Positions 9,507 to 62,900 of a stretch of DNA of 64,000 nucleotides are shown one piece after another. Location: contig OY740804.1 of NCBI GenBank assembly GCA_963514005.1, positions 19,530,001-19,594,000 on the forward strand. The letters run 5' to 3'. Each line of letters opens with the position of its first letter. Positions within the stretch are counted from its first letter, which is position 1. The DNA comes from Raja brachyura (taxonomy: Eukaryota). The translations under genes were made by a program, and so were the position numbers. The notes beneath the pieces are model-generated. The model did not search any database. It was given only the letters and a program-made list of their open reading frames with translations, and had not been told where the DNA came from.

Positions 9507-9508
9507 CC

Positions 9509-12395: not shown

Positions 12396-13152
12396 TTTCC
12401 CCGATGTAGGGGTATTATTATTTGGTATTGTTAAATAATTACTCTTTTGTTTTTCAGCACAGTTTCATGTCTGAAATACGTTAACATACTTCCTCCATTT
12501 CTCATTATGGCAGTGTGTGAGCATGGATTCGTTCCAGGGCATGAAATCACAGGGCTTTGAAATCGTCACACAGTCACTCACATGACTCCGAAGTAAAATA
12601 GTAAGATTAAATGAGAACTTACCAGTTTGAAGTTTGATCTTTATTTTATGAGGAGTTACGATGAGGGATTACGTGCCCTCCGCTCCCAAACCCTCTATTA
12701 TAAAGGTCAACTGGTATGCTAGTTCTCTTATCTTACTATGTTAGTCAACTCTGTTATCTGTGATTTCGCACCGCTGCTTTGAAGAATGTCGCGCATGCGT
12801 GCTGGCGGGGTCTTCACGTATATATATTAACGATTTAGACAAGGGAATTAAATGTAACATCTCTAAGTTTGCAGATGACACAAAGCTGGGTGGCATTTTG
12901 AACTACGAGGAGGATGCTATGAGGCTGCAGGGTGACTTGGATAGGTTGGTTGAGTGGGCAGAAGCATGGCAGATGCAGTATAACGTGGATAAATGTGAGG
13001 GTATTCACTTTGGTGGCAAGAACATGAAGGCAGATGATTATCTGAATGGTGTCAGATTAGGAGGGGAGGGGGTGCAACGAGACCTGGATGTGCTTGTACA
13101 TCAGTCACTGAAAGCGTGCAGGCAGTGAAGAAAGCCAATGGCATGTTGAATT

Positions 13153-28489: not shown

Positions 28490-28544
28490 ATGGACTCCAG
28501 GTGCCTGTCAATCTCCTTCTGGCTCGTGCTGGCCATCTCAGACT
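28490..28544 (+). CDS. SLAM/CD2-like exon 1: signal peptide [18 protein letters not shown]
   Basis: ATG, hydrophobic core, then GACT|GTAAGT phase-1 donor, typical of an IgSF leader exon. In frame with the IgV exon. Confidence 0.7.
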
Positions 28545-30289
28545 GTAAGTTTATTCAAAAAGAACCTTTCTGTTTAACTTTGTGTTTAACTTCTCTCTCT
28601 CCAGCAGAATCCCATCTTGCACTGCCTGGACAGTGTTTCGATACTAAGTAAAGCTCCCTTTATAATGTTGTTTGAAATATTAGCTACAACATTCACCAAA
28701 GCACCATACACCCAAATAAAGATTCAAAATATAGTTCACCTTGAGGTACTTCCCCTAACTGCTGTCTGCCTACCATTTTGATTATCTTAGATTTTAATGA
28801 CTTTACTCTAGTTATGGAGCAGAGACATGTGTGTGACCCTTTGAGGTTTTCAATGTATATGTGTGGCGACTCTCTTTACGCTCAGCCTGAAATAGGGCAT
28901 ACCGACCTCTGCCCTCTACCCCAGCTCACACTTTCTCTTCCTCTCGAGTTCGCCCTCATTTATTTGCCTTCTCTGTCCTTACCTCAGTTTTGGTGTTTCA
29001 ATTTATTTGCTTATCTTCCAACACCTATTTCAGTGTTGCTCTCTCTCTGCAGATCAGTTGGTCTTTCTATCTCTTCATCTTTCATTTCTCTCTCTTCATC
29101 GTACTCTCTCAAAATATTAGGGCCGCCCCATTTTCCGCCTTGCATCTTCACCGGAGGTGTTATATGCTTCCTGACACTAATTGATGGATTGTTTGACCAA
29201 ACACTCTCTCTTTGTGAATCAACTTATTACAACTTGACAGCAGTTCCCAATCACTAATGGGCTCTGAGCCGTCAGACCCATTTGTTCTTTGATGGATTCC
29301 AGCAACTATCCTCACTCTACGCAGTCCATATTCCCAGGGCATGATTAGACATAGAATGAAGCTCCTTTTCCACATTCCCATCACATATTTCCAGAGACAC
29401 GGATCAACTACACAGACAGTTTCCCTGTACACTGACACATGGCAAATTACCAGGACATTCGATAGATATAGAGTAAACACAGGTCTCCGTCTGTCTGGTT
29501 ACAATTTCCAAAGATACAGTTTTGAAACAATGTGAAGTTCTATTTACCCCATCTCCCTTAGACAGTCTCATGGCAAGGGTGAAATATAGCAGTTTAGGTT
29601 TATTATTGTCATGTGTACCGAGGTAAAGTGAAAAAAATAGTTCTGCATGCTATCCTATCAGATCAGATAATATAAAATATAAATATAATCTAGACAAACA
29701 CATGTACATTAGATAGAGGAAAGGGAAAGATACAGAGAGGGGAGTGTATTTCTTAGTGTTGTAGAGATGGAGAAGGAAGCACAGGCGTGGGTCATCTTGT
29801 TAGCTGATTTTCAAAGGCAGTTTGAAGTACATGATGAGTCAATGTGGAAAGGCCAGTCTGTGTGGCGGACTGGGCGACACCCACTGCTAATCCTTTGCAG
29901 TCTTGTGCAGAGCTGTTCACAAATCTGCACAAAGTTGTCATGCAACCCGAACATATGCTTTCTATGGTGCATCTGTAAATGTTTGTAAGAGTCATTGGAG
30001 ACATGCTGAATTTCCTCATCTCTTACAGAAGAAACAGGAAAGCTCTGTTTACCCCATCAAATCACTCACTCCTAGGGTGCATGCAGATCTTTTCTTGTCA
30101 CTCTTTTTCTCCCTTTTGAGTTCTCTCTCACTTTCTCACTATCCAAATGTTTTCTCCCCTACTTGGCACTCTTAGTCTCTCTCACTTTGTCTGCTAGTCT
30201 TCCGTCACTTCCGTGGGTCACACACTCTGCAGATTAGTCTGTCTGTCTCTTTCTTTCTCTCCCCCTTCTTTCCATCTCTCTCGCTCTCT

Positions 30290-30351
<62 letters not shown>

Positions 30352-33300
30352 ACTCAGTTTGTCTCCATTTCGTTCAGCAACACTATCTGCTTCATATATT
30401 TCCCAACCACCACCAGGATATGTTGCAACCACTTCCTGCCACCATTTGATGGTTTGAGTAAACACCCTTCCTTATCGCAGCTTAACAGCAGGTTTCTGAT
30501 CTCTCACAAGGGCTTAGGCTTAACAAGAGTTTCAGGCTTATCATTTCTTGATGAATTTCAATGGTTGTTCTTGCTCTGCACTGCCACAGTCCCAGGGCAT
30601 AGGTTGGATGCAGAGCAAAACTCCCTGTATAATGTCCCATCACACATGGGGCAGAGATTAAAAACAGGGTAAAGCCCCCCTCTAAACTTACACAGATCCA
30701 GGACAGGTTTAGATACTGAGTGAAACGCGAAGATTAAGCTGCAGTTTTGAGGCAATGACAGATACCTGTAAAATATGACAATGCTTGCATGGGAAAGTGA
30801 AATTTAAGGACCGGGGAGGTATTTCTCGTTTCTCTCTGTGAGAGGCAGGTTGAGACCAGAAGTGTGGGAAATGGAGGAGATGCATGTGGCGGAACGGGGA
30901 GCCATGTTTCTTGAGAATGGAGAATGAAGATTACTTGCATGGAAAGCCTCATCTTGACAACAGATGTAGTGGAGATGGAGAAACTGAAAGAAAGGGATGG
31001 TGTTCTCACAGGAGACGGGTGGAAGAGGTTAGTCCGTATGGGATTCAGTGGATTGATTGTAAATATAAAGGGATAATTTGCTTCCGGAGATGAGACAGAT
31101 AGAAAGGGGAGAGAAGTGTCAGAAATAGTCTAATCAAATTTGAGGACAGTCTGGAGGTTAATAGCAAAGGTGATAAAATTGACAAATTCCTCACAAGTGG
31201 AGGCAGCCCCAACTATTTCTCCATAATTACATATTACAACTTTCTTTGCCATGGCCCCCATATGGTCTGATACATTGAGAGCCTTGTTCAGGACGAGTGA
31301 CACTACTCACCTGATTTCAGGAAGAATTCAGCCTTCCTGTACATTTTAGAAACTGTGACAATGGCAAAAATGAATGGTAGGAGGCAATGTGTGCAAACAC
31401 CCAGACACTGTGGGAATACAGGGCTTAGATTAAATTAGGAATCAGAGGTGCATGTAACAAGGGCAATGCAGTGACCAGGAAGACCTGAATCCACTCATAG
31501 ACTAAGAGTGATGTGAAGATCCTCTATGCGTGGAGCCACAGGAGATGGACAAGGTCCTAAATTAATTCCCATCCCTATGCCTTTCATGCATGTTAGCGAG
31601 CTCAGCGAAGTCAATAGCGATGAATTGAAGAGAGCACATTATATCAAAGGAGCATTACACCACTACTGGAGGACTTAAAACATGTAAAGGTAAATCCTCA
31701 GGACCTAATTAAGTGTATCATAGGACATTGGGGTAAGGTAGGGAAGAATTTAAGAGGTGCCTAACAAATATATTTGTATCAGCGATAGCATTGGTGAGGT
31801 GTTGGCAGTCTGGAGGGTGGGTAAATTGTGTCTTTATTTAAGAAGGGCTGCAGGACAAGGCTGGGAAATACAGACCAATGAGTCTGACATCAATAAGCAT
31901 AGGTTATTAAAGGAGATTCTGAGAGACAGGATCTACGTGCATTTCGAAACACAAAGATTGAATAGGAATGGTTACTATGGCTTTGTGCTTGAGAATTTGT
32001 GTCTCAGGGATTTGAGCGAGTTTTTGACGAGGTGACTAGAAAGATGAAGATAGCGTGATAGATGTTGCCAATGTGGCCTTTGACAAGGTACAGCTTGGTA
32101 GGCTGGTCCAGAAGGTTATATCACATGGGGTCCAATTGAAATAAAATTGGCTTGATGGTAGAAGAGGCTGGGTAGTGATATACATTTGGTTTAAGACCGG
32201 AGGTCTGTGACGCTAGGTGTGCTGCAGGAATGGGTACTGGGTTGTTCATCATTTATATTAACAATTTGGATGAGAAACCAGGTGGCATTATTGGTAGGTT
32301 TGCATATGAAACTAAAATTGGTGTGTAGTGCACATGAAGAAGATTATCCATGATTACCATGGGATCCTGATCAACTGGGCCACTGGGTTGACGAATGGTA
32401 GATCAAGTTTAATTCAGATAAATGTGAAGTATGGTATTTTGGTTGGACAAACCAGAGCAGGACTTGCATAGTAAATAGTAGATAGGTATTGTAGGACACA
32501 GAGACCTAGGGGTGGAGGCAAATAGTTCCTTAAAAGTAGTAAAACAGCTGGGCAGAGTGGAAAAGGAGGTGTTTGGCACATTTGCTTTCATCAGTCAGGA
32601 TATTGAGTATTACAGGGCATATTACAGTTGTACAAGATGTTGATAATGCCACTAGTGGGGTAGTGCATACAGTTCTGATCTCAATGCTCTTAGATTATAT
32701 CATTAACAGGTGAAGATGCAAAAAAAAACCTTACGAGGATGTTACCTGGATTGGTGGGTTTGATTTAGAGAGTCATAGTCATACAATATGGAAACAGACC
32801 CATTGGCCCTACTTTCCCATGCCGACCATGCCCCATGCACGCCAGTCCCACCTTCCCGCATTTGGCCCACATCCCTCTCAACCTTTCCTATTCAGTCAAA
32901 AAAGGAGACGCTGGATAGGCTACAGCTTTTTACGCTGGAGCATAAGAGGTTGAGGGGTGAGCTAGTAGATGCTTATGAAATTCTGACAGACACAGATAAG
33001 TGAATAAACATAGACTTTTCCTAGAGTAGGGGAATATAAATCTAAAGGGAATATATTTAAAATAAGAGGAAAGATTTAAAAAGGACCTTGTAGACAGCCT
33101 TTTCACATAGTGGGTGGTGTGTATATGGAACAAGCTGTCAATAGAGGAAGATATAATTACGACATTTTAAAGACAGGTGTATGGATAAGAAAGATATTGA
33201 GGGATGTAGTCAAAATGCAGGCAACTTGGACTAGCTCACTTCGGCAACTTGTTCAGCCTAGACTTGTTGAGCCGAATGGCCTATTTCTGTGGTGATAGTT

Positions 33301-36300
33301 TGATGACACCATAGAGGAACAAACGCATGGATGGTTTGATATTTCAACATGTTCAGGAACCGATGATGGAGAGGGCAATTTTAGACTCATTATTGTGTAA
33401 AATGTAAGAGTTAATTGATAATCTAGTATTAATTTGTCAAGTCTGAAGGCGACATTGTAGCGCAGTGGTGGAGTTGCTGCCTCACAGCGCCAGAGGCCTG
33501 AATTTGATTATATAAAGTTGCTGCCTGTACGGAGTTTGTCCGTTCTCCCTGTGTCCAGGTGGGGTTTCATTGTTCATTGTTCATTTATTTATTGTTCATG
33601 TATTTATTGTCATTCGATAAAAGAAAGCGAATGGTATGTTAGTGACGAAAGCGAATGGTATGTTAGCTTTCATAGCAAAAGGATTTGAGTATAGGAGCAG
33701 GGAGGTTCTACGTCAGTTGTATAGGGTCTTGGTGAGACCACACCTGGAGTATTGCGTACAGTTCTGGTCTCCAAATCTGAGGAAGGACATTATTACCATA
33801 GAGTGCAGAGAAGGTTCACCAGACTGATTCCTGGGATGTCAGGACTGTCTTATGAACAAAGACTGCATAGACTTGGTTTATACTCTCTAGAATTTAGGAG
33901 ATTGAGAGGGGATCTTATAGAAACTTACAAAATTCTTAAGGGGTTGGACAGGCTAGATGCAGGGAGATTGTTCCCGATGTTGGGGAGGTCCAGGACAAGG
34001 GGTCACAGCTTATGGATAAGGGGGAAATCCTTTAGGACTGAAATGAGAAGGACTTTTTTCACACAGAGAGTGGTGGGTCTCAGGAACTCTCTGCCACAGA
34101 GGGTAGTTGAGGCCAGTTCATTGGCTATATTTAAGAGGGAGTTAGATGTGGCCCTTGTGGCTAAGGGGATCAGAGGGTATGGAGAGAAGGCAGGTACGGG
34201 ATACTGATTTGGATGATCAGCCATGATCATATTGAATGGCGCTGCAGGCTCAAAGGGCCGAATGGCCTACTCCTGCACCTAATTTCTATGTTTCTATGTT
34301 TCTATGTTTCTAAAAAAAAGCTTCCACATGAATCATGAATGACATTTGTACTCAGGTCCGAGCAATGTAATAGTGCAATAAGACATCAAAAAAATGCAGT
34401 AAAGACATCAATAAATTCTAACTTATATAAAAACCTACAACAATAAAATTTAAATAATAATGAGCCTATGAATAAATAGTAAAAAGTAAAAAAAGCAGCA
34501 TGGTTAAAAGACAGCAGCATAATAATGTCCATAGCAGCAGCAGTAGCAGCAGACAGTTCACTGAGGCAGTGAGGGTTCAGTCAGTGAGGTAGGGAGTTTA
34601 AAAGTCTCACAGCCTTGGGGAAGAAGCTGGCTTTAAGCCTTGTTGTCCTGGCCTTTATGCTGCGCAGCCTTCTCCCTGAGGGGAGGGGTCAAAGAGTCCA
34701 TTTGCCGGGTGGGTGGTATTTGAGGCTCTGCTCTTGCACCTGCTGATGTAAATGTCCCTAATGGCAGGGAGGCAGTTGTTTGTGATTTCTTGGGCAGATT
34801 TGACCACCCTCTGCAACGCCTTCCAGTCATCAGCAGAGCAGTTTCCGTACCGCACTGTGATACACGACGTGAGGACGCTCTCCACCACACACCTGTAAAA
34901 TGATGTCAGGACTAGGGTGCTGAGGCCAGCACGCTTCAGTTCCTCAAGAAATAAAGGCGTTGGTGGGCTTTTTTAATGATGCTAGCCGTGTTGCAGGTCA
35001 AGGTGAGGTTGTTAGAAATGTGCACCCCCAGATATTTAAAACTGGACACCATCTCCACAGCTTCTCCTCCGATGTAAAGGGGAGGGGGGGTGTAGCCGCC
35101 TTTTCTGAAGTCCACAATCACCTCCTTTGTCTCCCCCACGTTGTAGAGGTTGTTTGCTTTACACCAGACTTCAAGTTCTCCCACTTCCTATCTGTAGCCC
35201 GACTCGTCATTGTGGGAGATTAATCCCACCGCAGCTGTGTCATCTGCAAATTTGACAATATGACTGTTCGGGTGTTTGGCTGAACAGTCATAAGTGAGAG
35301 GAATGTACAGCAGGGGGCTCAGGACATCCCTGTGGGGAGCCGGTGTTGAGGGTAATGGGGGGGCGGATGAGACACTGTAGATGTTAACAGACTATGGCCT
35401 GTTGGTCAAGAAGTCTAGTACCCAGTTGCACATGGATGGTTTAAGTCCAAGCAGCAGCAGTTTGTTGACTAACGTCTGCGGAATGATGGTATTGAAGGCA
35501 GAACTAAAGTCCAAGAAGAGCAATCTGACATATGAACTCCTGTTCTCCAAATGAATGAGGGCTGAGTGAATGACGGATGAGATTGCATCAGATGTAGACC
35601 GGTTCTTCCTGTAGGCGTACTGATGAGTGTCGACATTGATGTTAATGCTGTCTTTTAGGTGGACCATAACCAGCCTTTCGAAGCATTTTGTGATTATCAG
35701 GGTGAGAGCCACCGGACGGTAATCTCAAGCCTGACACCACTGACTTTTATGGCACAGGGATGATGGTGGCGGTCTTGAGACATGTCAGCACCACAGCTTG
35801 GGAGAGGGAGGTGTTATAGATGTCAGTCAGTACCCCAGTGAGTTCATGAGCGCAGTCTCTCAGAACCCGTCCCGGGATGTTATCCGGGCCTGCTGCTTTG
35901 CGGGGGTTGACTCTCATCAGGGACCTCCTCACATCCTCAGCAGTCACCCTGAGAGGCAGCTCACCTGGTGGGAGTGTGAACCTGCAGCTGGGGGAGGTGT
36001 TGGAAGCCTCAAAGCGAGCATAAAAAGTGTTCAGGGCATCAGGAAGAGATGGATCCCTGGGGCATGCAGCATCTCTTTTGTTGTGCTCTGTGATGGCCTT
36101 GATGTCCTTCCACATGCTCTGGGGGTCATTGGTGGACAAATGACCTTGGATTTTGAAAGCATAGCTGGCTTTTGCTCTCTTAAGTCCAGCGTCCAGCTTG
36201 CTCCTCGCTGCTCTCAGCACCGATGCATCTCCCAGCCTGAATGCTGAGTTTCTCTGGGTACTCTGGTTTCCTCCCACGCTCCAAGACATACAGGTTTGTA

Positions 36301-39300
36301 GGTTACGGGCTTCGGTATAATTGTAAATTTTCCTTAGTGTGTAGGATAGTGCGATTGTACAGTGTGATGGCTGGTCAACGCAGACTTGGGCTGAAAGGCC
36401 TGTTTCTGCTCTGTATCTCTAAAGTCAGGGGAAGAATGATCACTTAAGAAAGAATTTGAAGCTTGGAAGTATTGTAGCAATGTTACAACATTTTGAGATT
36501 TAAAAAATGAAGTCTGCAATTTATCCCATCGGATAAAGCATAAAAAGAAGTTTAATGTGACACCTAATTCACTTTCATATCTTCAGTATTAAAAAAGTTA
36601 TGGCCATTTTCATATTCGGAAATTAGCATCTTGTTCCCTATTGCTTTTCCACTGATTTAACACAAAAGCTGTGATCGAGGACAGTCAAAAGCCCATAACT
36701 TTCTTAAAAATTAAGAGAACAGAAAGACATTTTCAGTTATTATAGATTGAAGCATTCTGAAACAAATATGAAACAATCTTACTTGGATGACCTGAAATTA
36801 AAGCATATAATTAGATACCTAATTGTAGCTAATTACAAAATGTAATTACTAGATCTAAACATCTATTAATTTCTTAAGAAAAGATTAACATTTTTAAATA
36901 GCCCAGGTGTCCAAATAACATTCACACAAGAATTCACAATATAACATGATTTTTAAATCTCATTGTCATGAATTTATAGGCCAAATGGAAGGAATTTAAT
37001 GTTTAATTCCCGTAAATTAATGGCCATTTAAATAATCTTGCAATAATCTTGGGTTTTTGTGGAACGCGATCAATTGGAACGTTGTGGTTTGCGGTGAATT
37101 TGAACCCCATATTGGCAGGAAAAACACTGCCAGTTCGTATGGGGCCATAATCACATTTTCGCCAATGAAATTTGGATTAAAGTCATTCAAAGAAGCAAGT
37201 TTATATGTAAAATAAACGACTTTCCTTGTGTTTTGTCCCCTACGTGAGTTCTGTCCCGTCACTGGCGTTGATGGCGTTAGAAGTAGCTTTATTATTTTAC
37301 TCCAGCAATTAAATTGTCCCGTGATTTTTTTTTTTTAACTTCCGAGACGGAAGTTAACTTTTAACGAGTGAATAGCAGAGATATTAGATAACTATTTTGT
37401 GGGTCATCACAAAGACGACACAGAGTATCCTGGGAACAGTTGGTGACCACTAGAGTAAATGAAGGGCTGAAAAAAATGTACATTAGTGAAAAATTGTGTT
37501 GGAGAAATGAAACGGAAAGGTGATAAATCCCCAGGATCAAATCACCTGCATCCCAGGGTTGAAGGAGACAACCTTGGATTGTCATCATCCAAATGTCCAT
37601 AGATGGTGGAACAGTTCCCACAAGTTGGAAGGATGCAAATGTTACTGCACTGTTTAAGAAAGGAGAGGGGGGGAAACGGGATACTACAAGCGTTCAAGGT
37701 AGGCTCCGGGCATTACAGGAGTTGCAAGGGATCATTTCAGATTTTCACTACAGCAGTGGGGATGGTGGGAGTTCTCTCCAAGTCACAGGGCAGCAATGAA
37801 CAGTGACCATGGTTTAAGTACAACATGGGGAAGGTGGAGTAGATTCCAGTCCCCAGTATAGTAGGTGAGGCCAGAGAGGTGGATGTCAGTTTGCTCCCAT
37901 ATTGGTGGAGAGGGCAGGGGTTCACTACCAGTTCCCAGTCCAGTAGTGGGGAGGGGAGAGGGTCACACCCAGTTCCCAGTACAATAATGGGAGGGAGGGA
38001 GGGGTGCACTGCTACTTCCCTGTACGTAGTGGGGAGGGGAGTGTTTCACAGCCAGTTCTCAGTACAGCAGAGGCAGGAAGGGAAGGGGATCACACCCAGT
38101 TCTCAGTACAGTGGTGGGGAGGGTTGGGGGATAGGTTAATTTCTGGTTCCGGTATAACTGTGAGGAGGGCAATGTTTCAATCGCAGCAGAGCGGTGAGAG
38201 GGGACGGGCAATTGACCCCAGGTTCCAATAACGGGCAGATCAGGATTCACCCCAAGTTTCAATCCAGCAGGAACTCGATAAGCTATGATCTTTTGCAAGG
38301 TATAAGTTTGAGGATCCAAATGGTATCACCCTACTTCTGCCTCTGGAAAATATTTCTCTTGGTACCTCTCATCACCCTGCCCCATCCACGTAAATCTACC
38401 CTCCCCCTTCTCTGATGTGACCAACCCCACTCCAAACCTGTCCACATTCCTGGATCTCAGCCAACAAAGGCAGGGATCCCCTCCTCTTCCCTCTCCCCTC
38501 CTCCATCAGGGATCTGTGAACGTGCATTCCAAGGGTCTGCTTCCTCTGACCCCCCCCCACACACCAGCCACTCTCCCATTTACCTTGTGTTCCCTCGCCA
38601 TGTTCACTCTGCCCAATCCCTCTCCCTCATCTCCGGACTGGGTCCCATTTGCCGTGTCTGTTCCCCCTGACCCGTCCGTCTATATCTGGCTACAGGCTGT
38701 AACTTCCTTCCTCAGTCCCGGGTGCAGAGAGTCTTCACTCTGTTCACCCCGTGGGCTCACTGTGTGATGCAGGAACTGTGGGCTGGGTCTCTCACAGAAC
38801 TGGGAGCCAGACGATGGGCCTCATGGCCTGCTCCTGTGCTGTGATTCTCCCAGCTCCGATTTTTCCTCCAGTTACTGTGCTCTCCTGCTGATTGCCTCTC
38901 TTGTCTCCTCAGCTGGGACTGGAGATGACACTCGCCCTGTGATTGGAACTGTGGGACAAAAGGCCTTGTTATCTTCTGGGCTTCAAGTCAAACCGAGCAA
39001 TCTTGAGATTGTGTGGGAACATCTATCATCCAGAACCAGGATACTGGAATATACGAAAGGGAATGTTAAAATCTATGACACCAAGTACAAGGGACGGGTA
39101 AATCTTCATCGCAATGACTTCAGTCTGGAAATTTTAAGTCTACAGACACAGGATGCCGGAGATTACGAGGTAACTGTAACACTGGATACGGGCGCACAGA
39201 CTGTGTCCACAGTCCGACTGGAGGTATATGGTGAGTGAGACTGCCGCCGAGGAGCCCGGGTTTAACCATTTCATGAAACCCCAATCCCACATAAATGGGT

Positions 39301-51500: not shown

Positions 51501-54500
51501 GTCTCGCTGAGTTACTCCTGCATTCCGTTCTATCTTTGACCAGCATCGTCTGAACGAAATTGTTATCATAGTCATAACATATAATAAAAAACAAAACACA
51601 CAATAAACACATATCCAACATCCACCACAATGAGATCACCAGGCACCTCCTCACTGTGGTGGAAGGCAAAAGTCTTAAGTCATTGTCTTCATCCCTCCTA
51701 GTTCTCCCTCTGCGCTGAGGCAATCCAAGCCTCCGCGCCGCTGGAGCACCGCAGCTCTAAGCCGGACCGCCGCTGGAGCACCGCAGCTCTAAGCCGGACC
51801 GCCGCTGGAGCACCGCAGCTCTAAGCCGGACCGCCGCTGGAGCACCGCAGCTCTAAGCCGGACCGCCGCTGGAGCACCGCAGCTCTAAGCCGGACCGCCA
51901 CTGGAGCACCGCAGCTCTAAGCCGGACCGCCGCTGGAGCACCGCAGCTCTAAGCCGGACCGCCGCTGGAGCACCGCAGCTCTAAGCCGGACCTCCGCTGG
52001 AGCACCGCAGCTCTAAGCCGGACTGCCGCTGGAGCACCGCAGCTCTAAGCCGGACCGCCGCTGGAGCACCGCAGCTCTAAGCCGGACCGCCGCTGGAGCA
52101 CCGCAGCTCCAAGCCGGACCGCCGCTGGAGCACCGCAGCTCCAAGCCGGACCGCCGCTGGAGCACCGCAGCTCCAAGCCGGACCTCCGCTAGAGCACCGC
52201 AGTTCCAAGCCGGACCGCCGCTGGAGCACTGCAGCTCCAAGCCGGACCGCCGCTAGAGCACCGCAGCTCCAAGCCGGACCGCCGCTGGAGCACCGCAGCT
52301 CCAAGCCGGACCGCCGCTAGAGCACCGCAGCTCTAAGCCGGACTGCCGCTGGAGCCCCGCAGCTCTAAGCCGGACCGCCGCTGGAGCACCGCAGCTCTAA
52401 GCCGGACCGCCGCTGGAGTACCGCAGCTCTAAGCCGGGCCGCCGCCGGAGCACCGCAGCTCTAAGCCGGACCGCTGCTAGAGCACCGCAGCTCTAAGCCG
52501 GACCGCCGCTGGAGCACCGCAGCTCTAAGCCGGACCGCCGCTGGAGCACCGCAGCTCTAAGCCGGACCGCCGCTGGAGCACCGCAGCTCTAAGTATATAT
52601 TTGATACTTGACTAATGACGTCAGTGTGCCGAAAGCCTTCTTGACCACTCTGTCTACCTGTGATGCCACTTTCAAGGAACTACGTATATACCTGCACTTC
52701 TGCATTTCACTGCTCTACAACTCTCCCCAGAGCCCTGTGTAGGTCCTATCCTGGTTAGACTCCGGAAAATGTATGACAATTATGTTTCCGAAATGCAACA
52801 CGTCACATTAATAATGAAAGACATTGTATACATACACTCTGTTGCGCTTATGATCGTGGCGCTCAATTCTTCCATAGTGTGATTGAAGTCTGCCTGAGGC
52901 AGGATGTAGAGTGAGCCGATTCATGCTTCCTCCAGCGTCTGTCGCTTCCAAGGCCTGAAAAAATCAGTTTAACATGTACATGGCATATGAGAGTTTGCAG
53001 TCTCTTTCTCATATTGGAAGGTTTGCTCCTCAAGTTCTGGTTGCACTTCAGACCGTGCTCCTGATCTTTGGGCACCCAGTGTGGGCCTCGGTGTGTCTGT
53101 TAGGGGACGTACGCGTTGGTCTGCTCCTGGGTCCAGCCCAGATGGCATTTCACAGGTGCCGCTGTGCGTAGTCGAAAGTTCCGCCCTGACTACCAGATCC
53201 TCTTTGGAGGTTATGTCCATATCTGGGTGACATTGAGAGGGAATGTTCAGCATCTACTGGCCGCTTGGAGGCTGACTGGGAGCAGAGGACACTGCAGCGG
53301 CTCAAGTGTGTCGAGATAAGGTTGTTGTAACTTGAAGTTTGTTGATCGTATACTGGATGAATACAATCCTGTATACCTGTACGTGTACAAATGTAATGTA
53401 TACTGTCCTAGTGTGATGCTTGTAATCGTGGAATTTCCTTTAAAAAAGAAAACAACTGTGGTCTAACTCAGAAACTGGCGTAATATATGGAGGGGGTAAA
53501 GTGAATGGTGATTGGAGAGGATAGTGGGGTATTGGAGAGGATCGAGGGGAATTGCTCTGGATGGAGGGTGAAAGAGGATAGCGGGATTGGAGGGAAGTGA
53601 TGTATGGGGATATTTGAGGCAATTGAGGAACATTGAGGGTGGAGGAGGAAAAGGAGGGGAGTGAAAATAAAAAAACACTGCAGTTTCCCAAAAGCACGAA
53701 GAATCCGTAGAAATAGAAACAGTTCGCGTTTCACATGAGGAACTCTTCACCAGACCTGAGAGACAAAGAAATGTCTGTATAGGTGGCAGTGAAATGTGAG
53801 GGAGGGGATGGGTTGGAGTCTAAGGTGGGATGAGGGTGTGTGGCAGATGGGAGATGGTTGAGTTACTGTGGCCGTGCGACCTATTGCTGATGTAGATCTG
53901 GCCACTGGGACGTGCCCAACAGGGCTGGCTGTCCAGGGAGAGAAAACAGGATGGCAGGCACTGGTTTGGGGTTTAGTGGAGGGAGATGGGAGTGGCAGTG
54001 GGGACATGATACTGGGGTGGGGTGGGAGTGGATCTGTCCACTCCGTGTCACTGGGAGAGACGATGGGGTTGGAGTCACTGAGTCTTTTCTCCTCACCAGC
54101 TACAGGATTGCCGTGGTGGGTGAAAATGCTGACCACCATTGTGATCATCATTGTGATCATCATTGTGATTGTTATGAGCCTCTCCATCTGTTACTGCTGC
54201 ATACTGAAAGTGAACCAACTGACATGGGCTGACCTGCTTGTGAACTGGGCCAACTGGAGCCGAGAAAGACGAGACCAGCGTGTTTCATTCTGTACCCGTG
54301 AGTGTCTGCTCCGATCAAGGGAATGTGAGGTCAGTTACCAGGGGAGAGAATAGCAAGGGGTGGGAGGAGCTGAGAGAGAGTGTGGGCAAGAGGATGGTGG
54401 AGATGAAGGGGATGTGTGAGACGAGGGAGCAGTGGTGAGTATAGAAGGCAATGGGGAGAAAACGGGAATGGCCAGAAGGATGTGGGAGGGGCTGGAGGAG

Positions 54501-56946
54501 GAGGTGGTAGGGGTCAGGGGTGTGGCAGCTGTGAGGGGGTTGTAGAATAGAAAGGCGGTTCAGAGGGGTGAGGGTTCCAGGGAGCAGATCACTGAACAGC
54601 GCCGCTTCACCTGTATTCTCCCTCCACAGTGTTGCTGAATCCAGAAACAATCATCAAGAATCCTCACGACAATACCGACAAACAGTAAGTAGCAGAATGG
54701 TCCTCAGCAGAGGACTGCTGGAGATCAAACAGGCAGCCCAGCGTGGGAGATGGCAGAGTAGTAACACGATAAATCATCCCCACATCCTCACCAGGAGTAT
54801 CCCAGGATAGAGACCCAGTTACTGGGGTAGACTGTCTCCACACACCCCCAGTTACTGGGGTAGACTGTCTGCCACACACCCAGTTACACTGTCCGCACTC
54901 GAGATTCCAATGTTTAATTGTCCAAGATTGGAACAATGAAATTCATATTTGCTTCAGCTTTGCAGGCATATTAAATGCAACAGCACAACAAATTAAGGTA
55001 TAATAAAAAATGTTGCGTTAGGGTTGTGCAGAGTGGTTCAAGATTCAGGCGGTCGATGGGAAGAAGCTGTTCCTGGAAGCTATAACACAGTTCTCAGACT
55101 CTTGTACCTTCATTTTGATGGTAGCAATGAAATGAGGCTGTGGATCTTGATCATATGAGATGCCTTCCTAACGCAGTGCCCCCTGTAGGTCCCTGTGATG
55201 GTTGGGAGCTCAGTTTTGTGATGGACCAGGCAAGATTTAATTCTCTGCAACTTCATTCCTTCCAAGCACACCCTGTTCCTGAGATACACTGTCCCCATAC
55301 ACCCAGTTACTGGGGTACACTGTCCCCCACACACCCAGTTACAGGGGTACACTGTCCCCCACACACCCAGTTACTGGGGTACACTGTCCCCATACACCCA
55401 GTTACTGGGGTACACTGTCCCCTACACACCCAGTTACTGGGGTACACTGTCCCCATACACCCAGTTACTGGGGTACACTGTCCCCATACACCCAGTTAGT
55501 GGGGTACACTGTCCCCATACACCCAGTTAGTGGGGTACACTGTCCCCTACACACCCAGTTACTGGGGTACACTGTCCCCATACACCCAGTTACTGGGGTA
55601 CACTGTCCCCATACACCCAGTTACTGGGGTACACTGTCCCCATACACCCAGTTACTGGGGTACACTGTCCCCATACACCCAGTTACTGGGGTACACTGTC
55701 CCCATACACCCAGTTACTGGGGTACACTGTCCCCTACACACCCAGTTACAGGGGTACACTGTCCCCCACACACCCAGTTACTGGGGTACACTGTCCCCAT
55801 ACACCCAGTTAGTGGGGTACACTGTCCCCTACACACCCAGTTACTGGGGTACACTGTCCCCATACACCCAGTTACTGGGGTACACTGTCCCCATACACCC
55901 AGTTACTGGGGTACACTGTCCCCATACACCCAGTTACTGGGGTACACTGTCCCCATACACCCAGTTACTGGGGTACACTGTCCCCTACACACCCAGTTAC
56001 AGGGGTACACTGTCCCCCACACACCCAGTTACTGGGGTACACTGTCCCCATACACCCAGTTACTGGGGTACACTGTCCCCATACACCCAGTTACTGGGGT
56101 ACACTGTCCCCATACACCCAGTTACTGGGGTACACTGTCCCCTACACACCCAGTTACAGGGGTACACTGTCCCCCACACACCCAGTTACTGGGGTACACT
56201 GTCCCCATACACCCAGTTACTGGGGTACACTGTCCCCTACACATCCAGTTACTGGGGTACACTATCCCCCACACACCCAGTTACTGGGGTACACTGTCCC
56301 CTACACACCCAGTTACTGGGGTACACTGTCCCCCACACACCCAGTTACTGGGGTACACTGTCCCCTACACATCCAGTTACTGGGGTACACTGTCCCCCAC
56401 ACACCCAGTTACTGGGGTACACTGTCCCCCACAGACCCATATACTGGGGTACACTGTCCCCCACAGACCTAGTTACAGGGGTACACTGTCCCCACACAGG
56501 CCACTTGTGAGGTTGGAGAAGGGTTGTGTTTCATGTTTGCGTTTCTGAATGGACACGCTCGCGAAGGTGAAATCTCGCGGTGCATGGGCCGAGTGAGATG
56601 GGGAGCGTCAGGGTCAATGGGTATCAAGGTGCTGCTTTGTGTGGGAAGAGGGGTTGGATTGGGAACACTGGGAAATATCTATCAATGGGCACTCACTGAT
56701 CTCACCTCTGCTCTGTCCTACAGGCTTGATCCAGTCAAAGTGAGTGAAGAAAGGATCCCATTCGGTGTTCGAAGCGCACAGACACCCCATGACATAGAGA
56801 CTCCAGCTCACAGACATCCCATGACAGTTGATTCCAGTTCACAGACACCCCATGAGAGTTGGCTCCAGCTCACAGATACCCCACAAGAGTTGGCTCCAGC
56901 TCAGATACCCCATGAGAGTTGGCTCCAGCTCATAGATACCCCATGA
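28490..56946 (+). CDS. CD2/SLAM-family immunoglobulin superfamily type I membrane receptor (spliced): join(28490-28544,38913-39230,43376-43657,54100-54297,54630-54684,56724-56946), about 376 aa; 3' end ambiguous
   Basis: All junctions are GT-AG with compatible phases (1,1,1,1,2) and no internal stop. Architecture is SP, Cys-less IgV, IgC2 with 4 Cys, TM, cytoplasmic tail. Confidence 0.8.
29592..30035 (-). mobile_element. Rex1-type LINE 3' fragment
   Basis: [17 protein letters not shown] peptide and CACATGACAATAATAAAC 3' end on the minus strand. Confidence 0.65.
30240..30352. repeat. (CT)n microsatellite in intron 1
   Basis: Direct reading. Confidence 0.9.
30700..31215 (-). mobile_element. 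Penelope-like RT fragment
   Basis: Minus-strand [20 protein letters not shown] resembles the PLE RT C-terminal motifs. Confidence 0.5.
31500..33300 (+). mobile_element. Old CR1 ORF2/3'UTR
   Basis: Degenerate AFDKV, IYINNLD and [14 protein letters not shown] motifs. Confidence 0.65.
33568..36240 (-). mobile_element. Rex1-type LINE (5'-truncated), containing a CR1 insertion near its 3' end
   Basis: [35 protein letters not shown] and [10 protein letters not shown] peptides; AATAAA plus (TGAACAA)n-type tail at about 33568-33610. Confidence 0.85.
33625..34311 (+). mobile_element. Young CR1 3' end
   Basis: [13 protein letters not shown] and [19 protein letters not shown] peptides; (TTTCTATG)n tail at about 34283-34311. 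Confidence 0.9.
36480..37360. repeat. AT-rich interspersed repeat, possibly a non-autonomous DNA transposon
   Basis: Sharp compositional change and an internal inverted motif (AAAGTTATGG..CCATAACTTT). No ORF, termini not resolved. Confidence 0.3.
37730..38230. repeat. Degenerate tandem repeat, unit about 41 bp (CACACCCAGTTCCCAGTACAGTAGTGGGGAGGGGAGAGGGT-like)
   Basis: CCAGTT(C/T)(C/T)CAGT followed by G-runs recurs at about 40-bp spacing. Confidence 0.7.
38913..39230 (+). CDS. SLAM/CD2-like exon 2: N-terminal IgV domain without the B-F disulfide
   Basis: Acceptor TTGTCTCCTCAG, donor G|GTGAGT, phase 1-1. Motifs [34 protein letters not shown] and VRLEVY; no cysteine. Confidence 0.9.
40085..40620 (+). 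mobile_element. Penelope-like 3' fragment
   Basis: [15 protein letters not shown] peptide and GTCTGAAGAAGGGTCTCGACCC..CAGCATCTGCAGTTCC terminal motif. Confidence 0.75.
40945..41115 (-). mobile_element. V-SINE (HE1-like)
   Basis: Reverse complement of the tRNA head and V-domain (GGTGCTGTCTGTGTGGAGTTTGTATGTTCTCCCTGTGACC). Confidence 0.7.
41500..43075. mobile_element. Cluster of CR1 fragments (both strands) and short Penelope/SINE tail pieces in intron 2
   Basis: KLERVQ.RFTR (minus), PHLEYC (plus), CR1 3'UTR motifs, and TCTGAAGAAG/GACCCGAAA motifs at about 42.6-42.8 kb. Confidence 0.55.
43376..43657 (+). CDS. SLAM/CD2-like exon 3: IgC2 domain with two predicted disulfides
   Basis: [29 protein letters not shown] and DVC; phase 1-1 with consensus splice sites. 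Sequons NFT and NRT. Confidence 0.9.
44000..45105 (+). mobile_element. Old CR1 RT/3' fragment
   Basis: [20 protein letters not shown] and MQFWTPYY motifs. Confidence 0.7.
46352..47610 (-). mobile_element. Short non-autonomous element (family of 13153-13907) next to a V-SINE piece (46228-46352), itself split by a CR1
   Basis: Degenerate hairpin motif at about 47223-47260; GC-rich GAAGCTCC repeats; GGAGGCCGCCAGCT..CGATATTAGGCC shared with 13691-13720. Confidence 0.6.
46453..47200 (+). mobile_element. Young CR1 3' end
   Basis: Nearly identical to 33625-34311; ends CCTGCACCTATTTTCTATG. Confidence 0.9.
47958..50685. repeat. 2.7-kb C/T-rich low-complexity (polypyrimidine) tract with internal duplications
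   Basis: Almost only C and T on the + strand. Blocks are repeated, e.g. about 48480-48740 versus 48995-49240, and CCCGTGTGTGTGGGAGGTGGTTAGTGTG near 50234 and 50547. Confidence 0.95.
51010..51540 (+). mobile_element. Penelope-like GIY-YIG/3' fragment
   Basis: [21 protein letters not shown] and [28 protein letters not shown]. Confidence 0.8.
51545..51735 (-). mobile_element. 3' part of the short non-autonomous element family, continuing into the 32-bp minisatellite
   Basis: ATCCACCACAATGAGATCACCAGGCACCTCCTCACTGTGGTGGAAGGCAAAAGTC matches 13261-13316. Confidence 0.65.
51736..52592. repeat. 32-bp CpG-rich minisatellite (GCCGGACCGCCGCTGGAGCACCGCAGCTCTAA), about 27 copies
   Basis: Near-perfect tandem units read directly; 4 CpG per unit. 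Confidence 0.97.
54100..54297 (+). CDS. SLAM/CD2-like exon 4: transmembrane helix and juxtamembrane region
   Basis: Acceptor CTTTTCTCCTCACCAG, donor C|GTGAGT. Encodes [33 protein letters not shown], in frame with exon 3. Confidence 0.8.
54630..54684 (+). CDS. SLAM/CD2-like exon 5: small cytoplasmic exon ([18 protein letters not shown])
   Basis: TTCTCCCTCCACAG acceptor, CA|GTAAGT donor, open in the required phase. Confidence 0.65.
55285..56500. repeat. 31/32-bp minisatellite (CCCAGTTACTGGGGTACACTGTCCCCATACA), about 39 copies; diverged seed copies at 54814-54895
   Basis: Direct reading; each unit contains the near-palindrome CCCAGT-T-ACTGGG. Confidence 0.97.
56724..56946 (+). CDS. SLAM/CD2-like exon 6 (cytoplasmic): either reads into the minisatellite to TGA 56944, or is a 16-nt micro-exon (56724-56739) spliced to 57084
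   Basis: CTCTGTCCTACAG acceptor; phase 2 matches exon 5. Internal AAA|GTGAGT donor at 56740 and downstream CCGTTTTACAG acceptor ending at 57083. Confidence 0.5.
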
Positions 56947-57064
56947 GAGTTGGCTCCAGCTCATTGATACCCCATGAGAGTTGGCTCCAGCTCATAGATA
57001 CCTCATGAGAGTTGACTCCAGCTCACAGATACCCCATGAGAGTTGGCTGCAGCTCACAGATACC
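56777..57064. repeat. 31-bp minisatellite (CACAGATACCCCATGAGAGTTGGCTCCAGCT), about 9 copies, at the 3' end of the SLAM/CD2-like gene
   Basis: Units of 32,31,31,31,29,31,31,31,31 nt counted by hand. Confidence 0.93.
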
Positions 57065-57759
57065 TGCTGCCTCCGTTTTACAGCGAGTGCCTCTGCACGT
57101 GCCCAGTTACTAGGAAACGATGCCCATCTCCGGTGCAGAGGGAGGATGATAGGGGTGAGTTTCCCTTCCACTGGAACCTCTGCCCTTTTCCCACTGACCC
57201 GGTGAGGAGGAACCATGTTCAACACCAGGGGTTCTGCAGTGACCTGTCGTGACCCCACATCCACACCCGTTACTCCCAGTCTCCCAACTCTTTGTCCCAG
57301 ACTGTGGTTTGTAACCGCACCAACGCTGTGCTCTGTGTTACTGACCGTATATCCACTGATGTTCCCACAGCCCCTCCAGTGGATGTGCAAATAACTATTC
57401 AGAAACAAAACATAGGTTGGCTTTATTGAAGACACAATACGGTTGTCAATTAGATTGTGTATGGTTCGGCTGTTCCCCACTCATGTGATAAATATATGAC
57501 CACGTATTTAACTAGAGGGCACATATTCTCAGCCCTGACTGCAACTTCCCTCTGAAAGTTGGTTTATTTTAGTGTTTATCCTTAATCGTATTTCAAAATG
57601 TTGCTAGAAAATGTGCATTTTGCAAGACCTGGTTTCTCAATTGTTTTCCTGATATATAAAAATTGGCAAACATAACTTTCTTAATTTAAACATTCACAAA
57701 CCAGTGTTCCTTGAACTTTGAAAGTGAGTATTTGCTGTCTTGTGTACGTATTCCTTATA

Positions 57760-59346
57760 CAGTGCATTCAGAAAGTATTCAGACCCCTTCACTTTTTGTT
57801 ACGTTATAGCCTTATTTTAAAATGGATTACATTTGGTTTTTTTTATCATCAATCTACACACAATACCCCAGAATGAAGGTGAAAACAGGTGTTTAGAAAT
57901 GTTTTCAAAGTAATTACAAAGAAATAACTGAAATATCACATTTACATAAGTATTCAGACCATTTACTATGCCTCTAAATTGAGCTTAGGCTCATCCTGTT
58001 TCCATTGAATATCCTTGAGGTGTTTCTACAACTTGATTGGAGTCCACCAGTGGTAAATTAAATTGATTGGACATGATTTGGAAAGGCACACACCTGTCTA
58101 TATGAGTTAACAGTGCATGTCAGAGTAAAAACTAAGCCATGAAGACAAAGGAATTGTCTGTAGACCTCCGAGACAGGATTGTGTCGAGGGAAGGGGAGAT
58201 ATGGGGAAGGGTATAAAACAATTTCTGCAGTATTACAGGTCCCGAAGAGCACAGTGGCCTCCGTCATTCTTAAATGGAAGAACTTTGGAACCACCAGGAC
58301 TCTTAATAGAGCTGGCCGCCTGGCCAAACTGAGCAATCAGGGGAGAAGGGCCTTGATCAGGGAGGTGACCAAGAACCCGATGGTCACTCTGACAGAGCTC
58401 CAGAGTTCCTCTGTGGAGATGGAAGAACCTTCCAGAAGGACAACTATATCGGTGGTACACCACCAATGAGGCCTTTATGGTAGAGTGGCCAGACGGAAGC
58501 CACTCCTCAGTAAAAGGCACATGACAGCCCGCTTGCAGTTTGTCAAAAGGGTTGTTTTGTCTGGTGCTCTGGTCTGATGAAACCAAGATTAAACTCTTTG
58601 GCCAGAATGCCAAGCGTCACGTACGGAGGAAACCAGGCACCGCTCATCACCTGGCCAATACCATACCTACATGGTGGTGAAGCATGGTGGTGGCAGCATC
58701 ATGCTGTGGGGATGTTTTTCAGCGGCAGGAACTGGGAAAGAGATCAGGGGAAAGATGAACGGAGCAAAGTACAGAGAAAACCCTGATGAAAACCTGCTCC
58801 AGAGCGTTCTGGACCTCAGACTGGCGCGGAGGTTCACCTTCCAAAAGGACAACGACCCAAATCACACAGTCAAGGCAACGCAGGAATGGCTTACTGACAA
58901 GACTGTTAATGTTCTTGAGTGGCCCAGCCGGAGCCTGGACATGAACCTGATTGAACATCTCCGGAGGGACCTGAAAATAGCTGTGCATCGATGCTCCCCT
59001 GACAGAGCTCGAGAGGATCTGCAGAGAAGAATGGGAGCAATTACCCAAATACAGGTGTGCCAAGCTTGTAGCGTCATATCCAAGAAGACTTGAGGCAGTA
59101 ATCGCTGCCAAAGGTGTCTCAACAAAGTAATGAGTAAAGGGTCTGAATACGTAAGTAAATGTGATATTTCAGTTATTTATTTTTAACTATTTTGCAAAAA
59201 TTTCTAAACACTTGTTTTTGCTTTTTTTATTATGGGGTATTGTGTGTAGATTGATGAAAAAAAAATGTGATCCATTTTAGAATAAGGCTGTAACGTATCA
59301 AAATGTGGAACAAGTGAAGGGGTCTGAATACTTTCTGAATGCACTG
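57760..59346 (+). mobile_element. Tc1/mariner DNA transposon, IR/DR type, full length (about 1.59 kb), transposase defective
   Basis: TA target duplication on both sides; about 200-bp TIRs starting CAGTGCATTCAGAAAGTATTCAGACCCC with an inner AAGTATTCAGACC direct repeat. Confidence 0.95.
58139..59130 (+). pseudogene. Tc1 transposase (DD34E type), frameshifted
   Basis: MKTKELSVDLRDRIV, GYKTIS, WSDETKI, KHGGGSIMLWGCFS, FQKDNDPNH, WPS.S.DMNLIEHL. Confidence 0.9.
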
Positions 59347-59994: not shown

Positions 59995-62900
59995 AAAAAA
60001 ATAAATGCTGAAAAGGCATTTGATCAGGTGGAATGGCCCTATCTTTTTTTCTGTGATGGAAAATTTTCAGCTGGGTGAGAAGTTTTGTACATGGGTTAAA
60101 CTCCGATATACTAACCCAACAGCTTCTTCTTCGAGTCCGTTGCAATCTCAGATGTCGTTCTGCCAGTATCTGGCGCAGGTCACAGCTGGTCGGGTGGGTT
60201 CAGCCAGGTCCTGGGGGCTGCACTGGGGGGCGTCGTCACACTTCAGTAGGTGGGACATTGTCTGTACTGCTCCACAGCTGCATGTGTCTTCTGCCTGGTA
60301 GTTCCATGCTTTCATAAGTGCTTTGCACCTCCCCTGCTCCACTCGTAATCTGTTGAGGGTCGTCCAGGTTGGCCATGGGAGGTCGTGCCCGCTGGCGAAG
60401 CATTCAGTCGGAGTAATTCCTCTCTCCATCCAGTCGTGAGCTCGTGTGTTGAGCTGGTTCCATTCATCTTTCCAGATGTTGGTCCTTGCTGTTTCTTTGG
60501 TTGTCTGGAGAGGTGGAACTGCAAGAAACTGGCTCTGGATTTCAGTCGGGGTGGAGGTGCTGTGTGTCCGTGTAGGGGGTGCCTGGTATCGATCTCCTCT
60601 CCACTTGTCTTGGGCGACGATGGATCATCTGATATGGGGGGGGGGGGGAGGGGGGGCAATACCAGCTATGGCGTAGAGGCAAGGGACTGGCGTTGTCTTT
60701 ATGCATCCCGTGATAATGCGGCAGGTGTCGTTGAGGGCTGCGTCAACCAGTTTGGTGTGGTGGGAGCGGCTCCAGCTTGAGAACGCGTATTCAGCTGTGG
60801 AGAAGCACAGGGCTAGGGCAGTTGCACGGATGGTTGGTGGATCAGCGCCCCACTTTGAGTTTACCAGTTTGTGCAGGATGTTGTTGCGAGTGTTGGCCTT
60901 GGCTTTGGTGTTCTAAAGGTGGGTTTTGAAAGAGAGTGTCCTGTCGAGTGTGACTCCGAGGTACACGGGGTGGAAGTGGTTGGAGAGTTTGTGGCCATCC
61001 CATGAGACGCTCAGTTGTTTGCCTGCATCTGGATTTTTAAGATGGAAGCTGCATAGTTGGGTTTTTGATGGGTTGGGTTTCAGGTGGTTGTTATTGTAGT
61101 AGGTTGTCATCTCTTGGAGGGCGCTTTCCAGGACAGACTCGATCTTCTGGAAGTTCTCCTGTTGGGTGGTGATGCAGAGGTCATCAACATAGATGAAGCG
61201 GCAGCATTGTGGGGGAAGTGGTTGGTTGGTGTAGATGTTGAAGAGGAGGGGGGCCGGTACGCTGCCTTGTGGTAGGCCATTCTTTTGGGCTTTCCATTTG
61301 CTCATCTTGTCATTTAGTTCAACGAAGAAGCGCTTGTTGTTGAGAAGGCTTTTGATGACTTGGCACAGGTGGAGGTCACCAGTCATGTCAAAAAGTTTCC
61401 TGATCATGGTGCGGTGCTGGACAGTTTCGTAGGCAGCGGTGAGGTCTATGAAAGCTGCTCCGGTGATGAGTTTGCACTCAAAACCGTCCTCAATGTGTTA
61501 GGTGAGGTTCAGTAGTTGCCCGGCACAGGAGCGGCCAGGGTGGAAGCCAGCTTGATCTTTAGTAAGCTTGGGGTCTATGAGTGGCTAAGGCGTTGGAGTA
61601 GTAGCCTCTCGTAGAGCTTGTAGGTGATGCAGAGGAGGGAAATGGGTCTGTAGCTCTTTGGGGATGATGGGTCCTTTCCAGGTTTGGGAATTGCGACAGT
61701 CTTGGCCTTTCTCCATACAGGTGGGGTTATTTTCTGTCCCATGCATGAGTTCAGCATTGCTAGGAGCCAGGTCTTTGCTTTAGGTCCCAGGTGCTGTATC
61801 ATTTCCACCAGTACATCATCGATTCCTGCTGCTTTCCCAGATTTCAGCATGCTCATTGCAGCTTCGAGTTCTTCTAGGTCGAAGGGCTTGGTGAGAGCGC
61901 TGGCTGGTTGTAGGCGGTCTGTTACCGCTGTCCGGCGGCATTCTCCTGTGGATCTGCGCCGGTTTTGGCTACGACCGTTTGCCACCAGCTGTGCTGCAAC
62001 TGAGTTTGCTGTGACTGTTGTGAGCGTGGGCGGTGTGGTATGGTCTTCGCCGAAGCGGCGGATTGTGGCCCATGCCTTCCTGCTGTTATTGGTCATGTTG
62101 GTGTTTTCTATCAACTCCTTCCAGACTTGCCTTCGGTCCTCCCCGACTGTGTTCAACAGGATCTCGCCGAGTTCCATGGTGGTGGAGGAGAAAGGGTCCT
62201 CGTGGTATGCCCCGTGGTAGGCTTTCAGTAGATCGCTGGATGTTTCCGGCAGCCCGGGGATGGCATCCTCTTGGTATATGTCGCCTGGCTGACCTTTTCA
62301 CCAGTTCTGTGAACATGGTATAGTTGTTGGGGTGTGATGGAATGCTGGGGATGGAGTCTTCGATCTCCTGTTGGAATGACAGCCAGTCGGCCTTCCGCAG
62401 ATTGAACCTTCTGCGGAAGGGGACGGTTGTTGCTTGGAGAGCGGATCGGATGGTTATGGTGATTGGCCGGTGTTGCGTATGGGGGATAGGGTCCAGGACC
62501 TCTTTCACAGTTCTGAATGATAGTTCGCTGCTCACACAAACAAGGTCTGGTTTATATCCTCGTTTCCATCTGGCACTGTGGAAAGATTTTGGCAGTTTGG
62601 CGTCATGGATCAGGATCAGGTGTTTCGACTCGAGCCAGGTTTCGACTTCATCTGCATCTTGATTGTTCACTTCATAGCCCCACAATGAGCTATGGGCATT
62701 GAAGTCCCCAATGCTAATGTGGTATTTCCTCTTGCATCTGTCTGGCAGTTCAGAGTGGAGGAACGGACTTTGGGGGGGTTTATGCACTGATGTGACAGAT
62801 GTTTGGGAGGGCAACTGTGATGGTTTCCATTTGCCCTTCGGTGGTGTGGGTGCAGACCTCTTCGATCACGAGGTTTGGTCTGCTGAATACAGCTGACCCA

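Follow-up and report, generated by a model that had tools for sequence, protein, structure and literature searches.

A spliced CD2/SLAM-family membrane protein with an ITSM-free tail, encoded in a skate gene cluster beside NCSTN and PEX19

The V domain of CD2/SLAM proteins lacks the B-F disulfide and their C2 domain contains four cysteines in two disulfides, the constant domains of CEACAM proteins contain two cysteines, and HEPACAM is a single-copy conserved gene outside the SLAM locus. Tandem expansions of the CD2/SLAM family, with tails both with and without an ITSM, occur in Xenopus and in cyprinid fish such as carp. The mammalian family includes a GPI-anchored member, SLAMF2 (CD48), and two others, SLAMF8 and SLAMF9, with approximately 30 intracellular residues and no ITSM (PMC4718992), so that a missing ITSM is not in itself surprising. 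Both CD58 and CD48 bind in trans through the V domain (PMC11969063, PMC7472110). In sharks, T cells of the nurse shark are marked by transcripts of Cd2 and Slamf6 (PMC10529500) and a T subset of the bamboo shark by an sh2d1a-like gene (PMC11372145), while for the white shark a figure legend depicts a slamf gene within the MHC (PMC10751288). The literature covered, mostly open papers without supplements, yielded no account of a skate or shark SLAM cluster, and the supplements of genome papers may list such genes.

The window analysed here is a stretch of 64,000 nucleotides from the skate Raja brachyura (contig OY740804.1, positions 19,530,001 to 19,594,000), in which an initial annotation had described a hidden gene of six exons with GT-AG sites and compatible phases, successively encoding a signal peptide (SP), an IgV domain free of cysteine, an IgC2 domain with four cysteines, a transmembrane (TM) segment and a tail. 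This gene (gene A; its downstream neighbour is termed gene B, and an inverted gene is termed gene C) is a spliced skate CD2/SLAM-family membrane protein combining IgV, IgC2 and TM, the end of which has now been corrected. The predicted architecture was sustained for the most part: the six GT-AG exons (Table 1) join to an open frame of 1131 nt that encodes 376 aa of a type I membrane protein with no internal stop.

Table 1. Positions of features of gene A in the window, and of a transposon that carries a related segment.
Feature	Position	Strand	Evidence or remarks
Exon 1, coding part (18 codons + 1 nt), encoding the signal peptide; donor GTAAGT	28490..28544	+	matches N-terminus of skate orthologue P0001; predicted from sequence
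Exon 2: IgV domain without Cys, phase 1-1	38913..39230	+	Pfam V-set, Receptor_2B4; best PDB match CD48, E 2.8e-6; present in runs X1-X3
Exon 3: IgC2 domain with four Cys (C140, C146, C194, C213), phase 1-1	43376..43657	+	in X3 and X4 the loose end ahead of the TM exon is the 3' end of this exon
Exon 4 (phase 1-1), with TM helix, CYCC, Trp-rich helical segment and basic patch	54100..54297	+	spliced contigs; one-helix single-sequence model; paralogues B and C have homologous exons
Exon 5 (phase 1-2), 55 nt long, 5 nt less than its counterparts in the paralogues; may be a decayed ITSM exon	54630..54684	+	joint 54297-54630 GT..AG; alignment; register test; weak DNA test
Exon 6, coding part: another 73 codons, none for Tyr, in part minisatellite; stop TGA 56944-56946	56724..56946	+	loose ends behind exon 5 in X3 and X4, passing 56740; stop from DNA
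31-bp minisatellite, 9.5 copies: most of the distal tail of gene A, continuing into the 3' UTR	56773..57064	+	paralogues B and C have a far shorter array
31-bp minisatellite, 39 copies, in intron 5 of gene A	55267..56498	.	common to the same intron of paralogues B and C
SLAM-capturing TIR transposon	L010:1264-3040 (G000:C5:93.37 Mb), L009-L020		source G000:C24:19345367-19345657

Alignment of four public runs (X1, X3, X4 and X5) to positions 53600-54810 provided spliced contigs across some of the predicted junctions, evidence of the kind that had been sought. Runs X3 (organism A) and X4 (organism B) are recorded neither as RNA nor with a tissue, yet each of these two of the four runs still yielded one spliced contig, and both contigs show three of the five junctions (C2-TM, TM-exon 5 and exon 5-exon 6); in X1 and X5, which look like DNA, the sequence continues through the intron between the TM exon and exon 5. 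The two upstream junctions, SP-V and V-C2, agree with the skate orthologue P0001, and also fit, as a length argument only, the X3 contig, the 685 nt of which upstream of the TM exon correspond to 649 coding nucleotides plus 36 and leave no extra exon among SP, V and C2. In database relatives of a paralogue the TM exon is separated from the last one by a further, small exon, the counterpart of which in gene A is exon 5.

The end of the gene, which the initial annotation had placed at 57113, required revision. Both contigs pass through the donor GTGAGT at 56740 within exon 6, and the seven-exon form splicing from 56739 to 57084, on which an end at 57113 depends, was therefore rejected in favour of a stop that ends at 56946; organism B has GTGGGT at this site, without the donor consensus. 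Because the X3 and X4 contigs end, if colinear, 12 and 34 nt short of this stop, its position was taken from the DNA. A direct joint between exon 4 and 56724, giving a 38-residue tail with a stop as in the paralogues, was likewise not seen in the contigs, which include exon 5. The description of the gene as hidden among introns filled with transposable elements held in part: 72% of its span has another match inside the surrounding 464 kb, paralogues and simple repeats being counted, and the introns are indeed repeat-rich, but relatives were already present in RefSeq (XP_055510665.1, XP_032898067.1 and XP_032898513.1).

Several other features of the window were recorded. The intron after C2 (43658-43900) is conserved with the little skate, whose RefSeq model reads into it; in gene A it reaches a stop after 9 codons, and its retention would give a soluble form. 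Elsewhere, LINE pieces lie at 130-4500 and 60100-63400, a Tc1-like piece lies at 58100-59100, and ORFs on the + strand at approximately 8400-12400 presumably belong to a DIRS-type retrotransposon, resembling as they do a reverse transcriptase, an RNase H and a recombinase.

Membership of gene A in the CD2/SLAM family, as originally proposed, is supported by several comparisons. The suggested profile search of the V exon returned Pfam V-set (E 7.9e-8) and Receptor_2B4 (E 8.6e-5, over the cut-off), and among solved chains CD48 occupied ranks 1-3. The ectodomain consists of a distal IgV and a proximal IgC2 followed by the TM segment, as in the definition of the family (PMC4718992); the V exon encodes no cysteine, a property that extends to seven of the ten V domains in the surrounding cluster, and the last three of the four C2 cysteines are nearly invariant in relatives, these being cysteine positions from which the disulfides are predicted. 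Structure prediction, also proposed at the outset, was undertaken with the paralogue P0016, the AlphaFold model of which (mean pLDDT 82.9) most closely resembled a CD48/CD2 chimera and NTB-A (SLAMF6), CEACAM1b being fourth and not far behind. CEACAM1 was the first match of the C2 exon alone, and a profile of 26 relatives placed the multi-domain proteins FCRL5, CEA, titin and CEACAM1 above SLAMF6; when the same profile was confined to two-domain chains, SLAMF6, CD48/CD2 and CD2 led. The C2 domain of gene A has four cysteines rather than the two of a CEACAM constant domain, and the location of gene A in a fast-diverging cluster beside NCSTN and PEX19 differs from that of HEPACAM; the isoforms of one skate gene cluster have been named both HEPACAM-like and Ly-9-like. 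Gene A further differs from the SAP-binding SLAM receptors (SLAMF1, 3-7) in having no ITSM in its tail, and from what would be expected of a CD48 orthologue, with a GPI anchor and neither TM segment nor tail, in that its TM exon is spliced in. Complex prediction with two copies of the V domain scored 0.00, a value that counts neither for nor against binding.

Linkage is consistent with this assignment. The cluster extends from 19.34 Mb, and its first gene is 0.4-0.5 Mb away from NCSTN (C24:18.90 Mb) and PEX19 (18.88 Mb). The human SLAM cluster at 1q23 likewise adjoins PEX19 and NCSTN, whose side is the SLAM side rather than the CD2/CD58 locus. Two of the four SLAM-locus markers tested were thus linked; as for the other two, C12 alone contained VANGL, and UFC1 lay on contigs other than C24.

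The neighbouring DNA proved to contain the paralogue cluster for which a search had been advised: ten IgV genes or exons, gene A among them, were located in 464 kb around the window. An exon scan predicted ITSM-type exons downstream on the same strand for four of the ten, plus one more, unassigned ITSM-type exon, and the predicted motifs (TIYAQV, TIYDTV, TEYAAV and TVYATV) have matching tails in ray relatives. A tree of 46 rows, comprising cluster genes and database relatives (most of them unlabelled, with no CEACAM or HEPACAM rows, and with a midpoint root for drawing), united genes A, B and C with skate database proteins in one V clade (98/98). The nearest named protein, XP_055510665.1 from the little skate, is 78% identical over the V exon, and there are further relatives in the thorny skate; the chondrichthyan lineage originally suggested for the gene is thus borne out by its nearest named relatives.

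Genes B and C lie to the right of the window (G000:C24:19599560-19673569), with C inverted and tail-to-tail with B. Gene B is a mosaic, its V exon being 92% and the next intron 99.2% identical to those of A, while its TM exon and intron 4 are 93% identical to those of C; these identities point to exchange between neighbouring cluster genes, putatively by gene conversion. Other members of the cluster are more divergent in organisation. A V-only gene at G000:C24:19707532-19712909 has a Thr-rich stalk, TM and ITSM-type exons, with no C2 exon found; the TM exon of the first cluster gene (G000:C24:19358230 region, L043) apparently has a GC donor, GCAAGT, at the place where gene A has its homologous GT donor; and debris includes a partial C2 at C24:19370526. 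Another short TM exon with CLCGC before the helix is present in three copies (G000:C24:19368736, 19430935 and 19447692, - strand), and represents another ITSM-less type in the cluster resembling the stingray protein P0054.

A segment of the family has also been carried outside the cluster. A non-autonomous DNA transposon of approximately 1.85 kb, with short TIRs (~16 bp, starting TAG), bears the 3' half of a SLAM V exon together with its donor and ~110 nt of intron, a segment that shares 90.7% identity with the first cluster gene. It was recorded in at least 34 places on 19 contigs outside the cluster (40 of the 67 candidates scored), and many copies keep the frame open.

Beyond the CYCC motif (54189) the tail of gene A comprises 124 residues with no Tyr, no TxYxxV/I, no PxxP or PPP, and five TP pairs. 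The claim of the initial annotation that the tail lacks an ITSM was confirmed, inasmuch as none occurred in any of the three tail variants built, and among 528 + strand acceptor-frames from 54298 to the signal exon of the next gene there was a single TxYxx[VIL], located 10 kb past the stop. The companion claim that no ITIM is present needs qualification: no Tyr follows CYCC, but the Tyr within it forms a loose IxYxxI match at the TM edge (paralogues keep IxYxC[IMV]), and in organism B Tyr-Ile replaces Cys-Thr at the end of the TM exon (window 54292 and 54295), the C-to-Y change at 54292 creating an ITIM-like SxYxxL that spans the exon 4/5 junction. Similarly, the CYCC cluster and the Trp-rich segment (54219) are both present as described, but CYCC is peculiar to gene A, paralogues retaining only YxC, and it is the long TM exon with its Trp segment that is common to genes A, B and C.

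A single-sequence model of the gene A TM exon gave one helix at exon residues 5-64, and in the P0016 model the corresponding helix (223-266) falls in confidence to ~60 in the Trp segment. As modelled, the Trp and Leu residues at W 0, L +3, W +7 and W +10 would share one helix face; the hydrophobic moment of the segment was not above that of shuffled sequences (407, 1119 and 953 of 2000). A weak search with the gene A TM exon found no match in other sequences, and a search with a paralogue tail recovered only the skate cluster P0016, one of 24 candidates. The Trp segment occurred in one of the listed representatives of up to 560 aa, and has so far been found only in a skate cluster of 39 members by searches that are weak for short segments. 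The Trp-rich tail is so far known only from skates; members without an ITSM are an established part of the family (PMC4718992), a point on which the initial annotation was overstated.

Comparison with the paralogues suggests how such a tail may have arisen. Three paralogues with an ITSM have an intron end homologous to the one that precedes the TM exon of gene A (z 17, 8.1 and 4.9; 0 of 300 shuffles in each case), which argues that gene A derives from the same stock. In exon 5, ETII occupies the codon positions at which two ITSM exons have ETIY, and in a register test chosen after the motif had been seen, ETI at codons 5-7 after the acceptor was present in 3 of 3590 frames, these being the two ITSM exons and exon 5 of gene A. 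Genes B and C were at background level in this test (484 and 904 of 3590), and alignment of exon 5 DNA with four ITSM exons was weak for gene A (z <= 2.0). Because of the post hoc choice of test, the weak alignment and the background values for B and C, the odds that exon 5 is a decayed ITSM exon are put at slightly better than even; that gene A lost its ITSM seems likely from the sequence comparisons. Exon 6, considered as a relic of a second ITSM exon, had no clear likeness (z 0.5-2.2) and was rejected in this role.

Exon 5 is 55 nt long in A as against 60 nt in B and C, a difference that shifts the frame in A and, given that no indel is listed in this exon for either the DNA or the spliced contig of organism B, is not attributable to an assembly slip. 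The shifted frame passes the position of the gene C stop and continues through the 31-bp minisatellite, while gene B has a premature stop inside exon 5 and gene C ends in EMAAML. That three genes have three different ends suggests the TM exon as the part of these tails likely to be under constraint.

With no ITSM in its tail, gene A is read mainly as an adhesion ligand, a function that the initial annotation had fairly suggested. On contact with another cell it would pair with a further copy of itself or with a neighbouring SLAM receptor and would not recruit SAP, an interpretation to which a probability of roughly 0.6 is assigned. Family precedent (CD2-CD58, CD48-2B4) suggests that its V domain would bind head-to-head via the GFCC'C'' face, any SAP signal being left to a partner that bears an ITSM. 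The juxtamembrane cysteines are predicted to carry palmitate and the Trp stripe to fix the helix to a partner helix or to the inner leaflet, so that together they would serve much as the GPI anchor serves CD48; the distal 90 residues of the tail would be mostly dispensable, since the three paralogues end in three ways. Against this, a 124-residue tail with five TP sites could itself signal. An unlikely but serious contender is a SAP-independent signalling receptor, similar to CD2, SLAMF8 and SLAMF9, in which ligation would bring in a partner through the Trp helix, IxYxC[IMV] or the Thr-Pro repeats. Retention of the Trp segment and YxC in all three genes of the clade and in those skate relatives that include the TM exon speaks for such a role, as do the long frame kept in organisms A and B, the exon 6 frame of gene A that is also open in B and C, and the SxYxxL of organism B; the tail nevertheless has no Pro-rich CD2 motif after CYCC, tyrosine is commonly placed at the edge of a TM segment as an interface residue, and the six TM-exon differences listed for organism B against organism A, few as they are, all alter residues, unlike a tightly kept docking site.

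The V exons of the cluster have diverged in a manner compatible with another role, namely that of a decoy or competitor. In this role a fast-changing copy would intercept ligands or pathogen proteins directed at the ITSM receptors, would transmit no signal and would give soluble forms by skipping of the TM exon. Values of dN/dS in three cluster pairs were 0.73, 0.88 and 1.06, a fourth pair having 4 non-synonymous and 0 synonymous changes, and both the exchange evident in gene B and the omission of the TM exon from RefSeq isoforms P0154 and P0162 of paralogue C are in keeping with it. The dN/dS values are not, however, clearly above 1, no TM-less form of gene A was seen in reads over 53600-54810, and a shared ligand is doubtful because the V domain of gene A is only 44-47% identical to those of its ITSM-bearing neighbours, leaving this role a slender chance. 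That gene A might be a transcribed duplicate in decay with no needed function is very improbable: the frameshift in exon 5 relative to the paralogues, the run of the tail into a minisatellite and the broken pieces in the cluster are what decay would produce, but the 376-codon frame is open, all splice sites and domain-core residues are kept, splicing occurs in two organisms and relatives exist in two more skate species.

Alongside the preferred reading as an adhesion ligand, it may be speculated that skates made a SLAM subfamily of their own, in which the ITSM Tyr was erased (ETII) and a Trp-striped helix inserted as a new module for membrane coupling or signalling, with receptor-ligand pairs independent of mammalian 2B4-CD48; this proposal is rather unlikely to hold.

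Among the closest described proteins, XP_055510665.1 (CD48-like, Leucoraja erinacea) and XP_032898067.1 (SLAMF9-like, Amblyraja radiata) group with genes A and B (100/100), and a Trp-rich tail of the gene A type is present in XP_032898513.1 (HEPACAM-like, Amblyraja radiata). The two closest RefSeq models omit the TM exon, one reading into the intron after C2 and the other being cut short, and the corrected model of gene A therefore supplies a membrane form and tail that neither represents. More broadly, a cartilaginous fish is found to have a ten-gene SLAM cluster at the mammalian locus, mixing predicted ITSM receptors with ITSM-less members; the expansions in Xenopus and cyprinids, similar in their tandem arrangement and mixed tails, are of a lineage independent of it. 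The cluster offers named candidates with which to ask whether SAP-dependent receptor-ligand pairs date from early jawed vertebrates or have arisen repeatedly.

Gene A resembles SLAMF8 and SLAMF9 in its IgV, IgC2 and TM organisation, in the absence of an ITSM and in its SLAM locus, but differs in the 124 residues after CYCC, with their Trp-rich helix, that stand against tails of approximately 30 residues (PMC4718992). In the 46-row tree it groups with skate paralogues, with no sign of orthology to either protein. With CD2 it has in common a two-domain ectodomain, a TM segment and a long tail without an ITSM, CD2 differing in its Pro-rich motifs, of which gene A has none, and gene A in adjoining NCSTN and PEX19. 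The closest parallel to the function proposed here is provided by CD48 and CD58, signal-less ligands of a related receptor: CD48 is the best match of the V exon and, as part of a chimera, of the paralogue fold, and where it has a GPI anchor, gene A has a TM segment and a tail.
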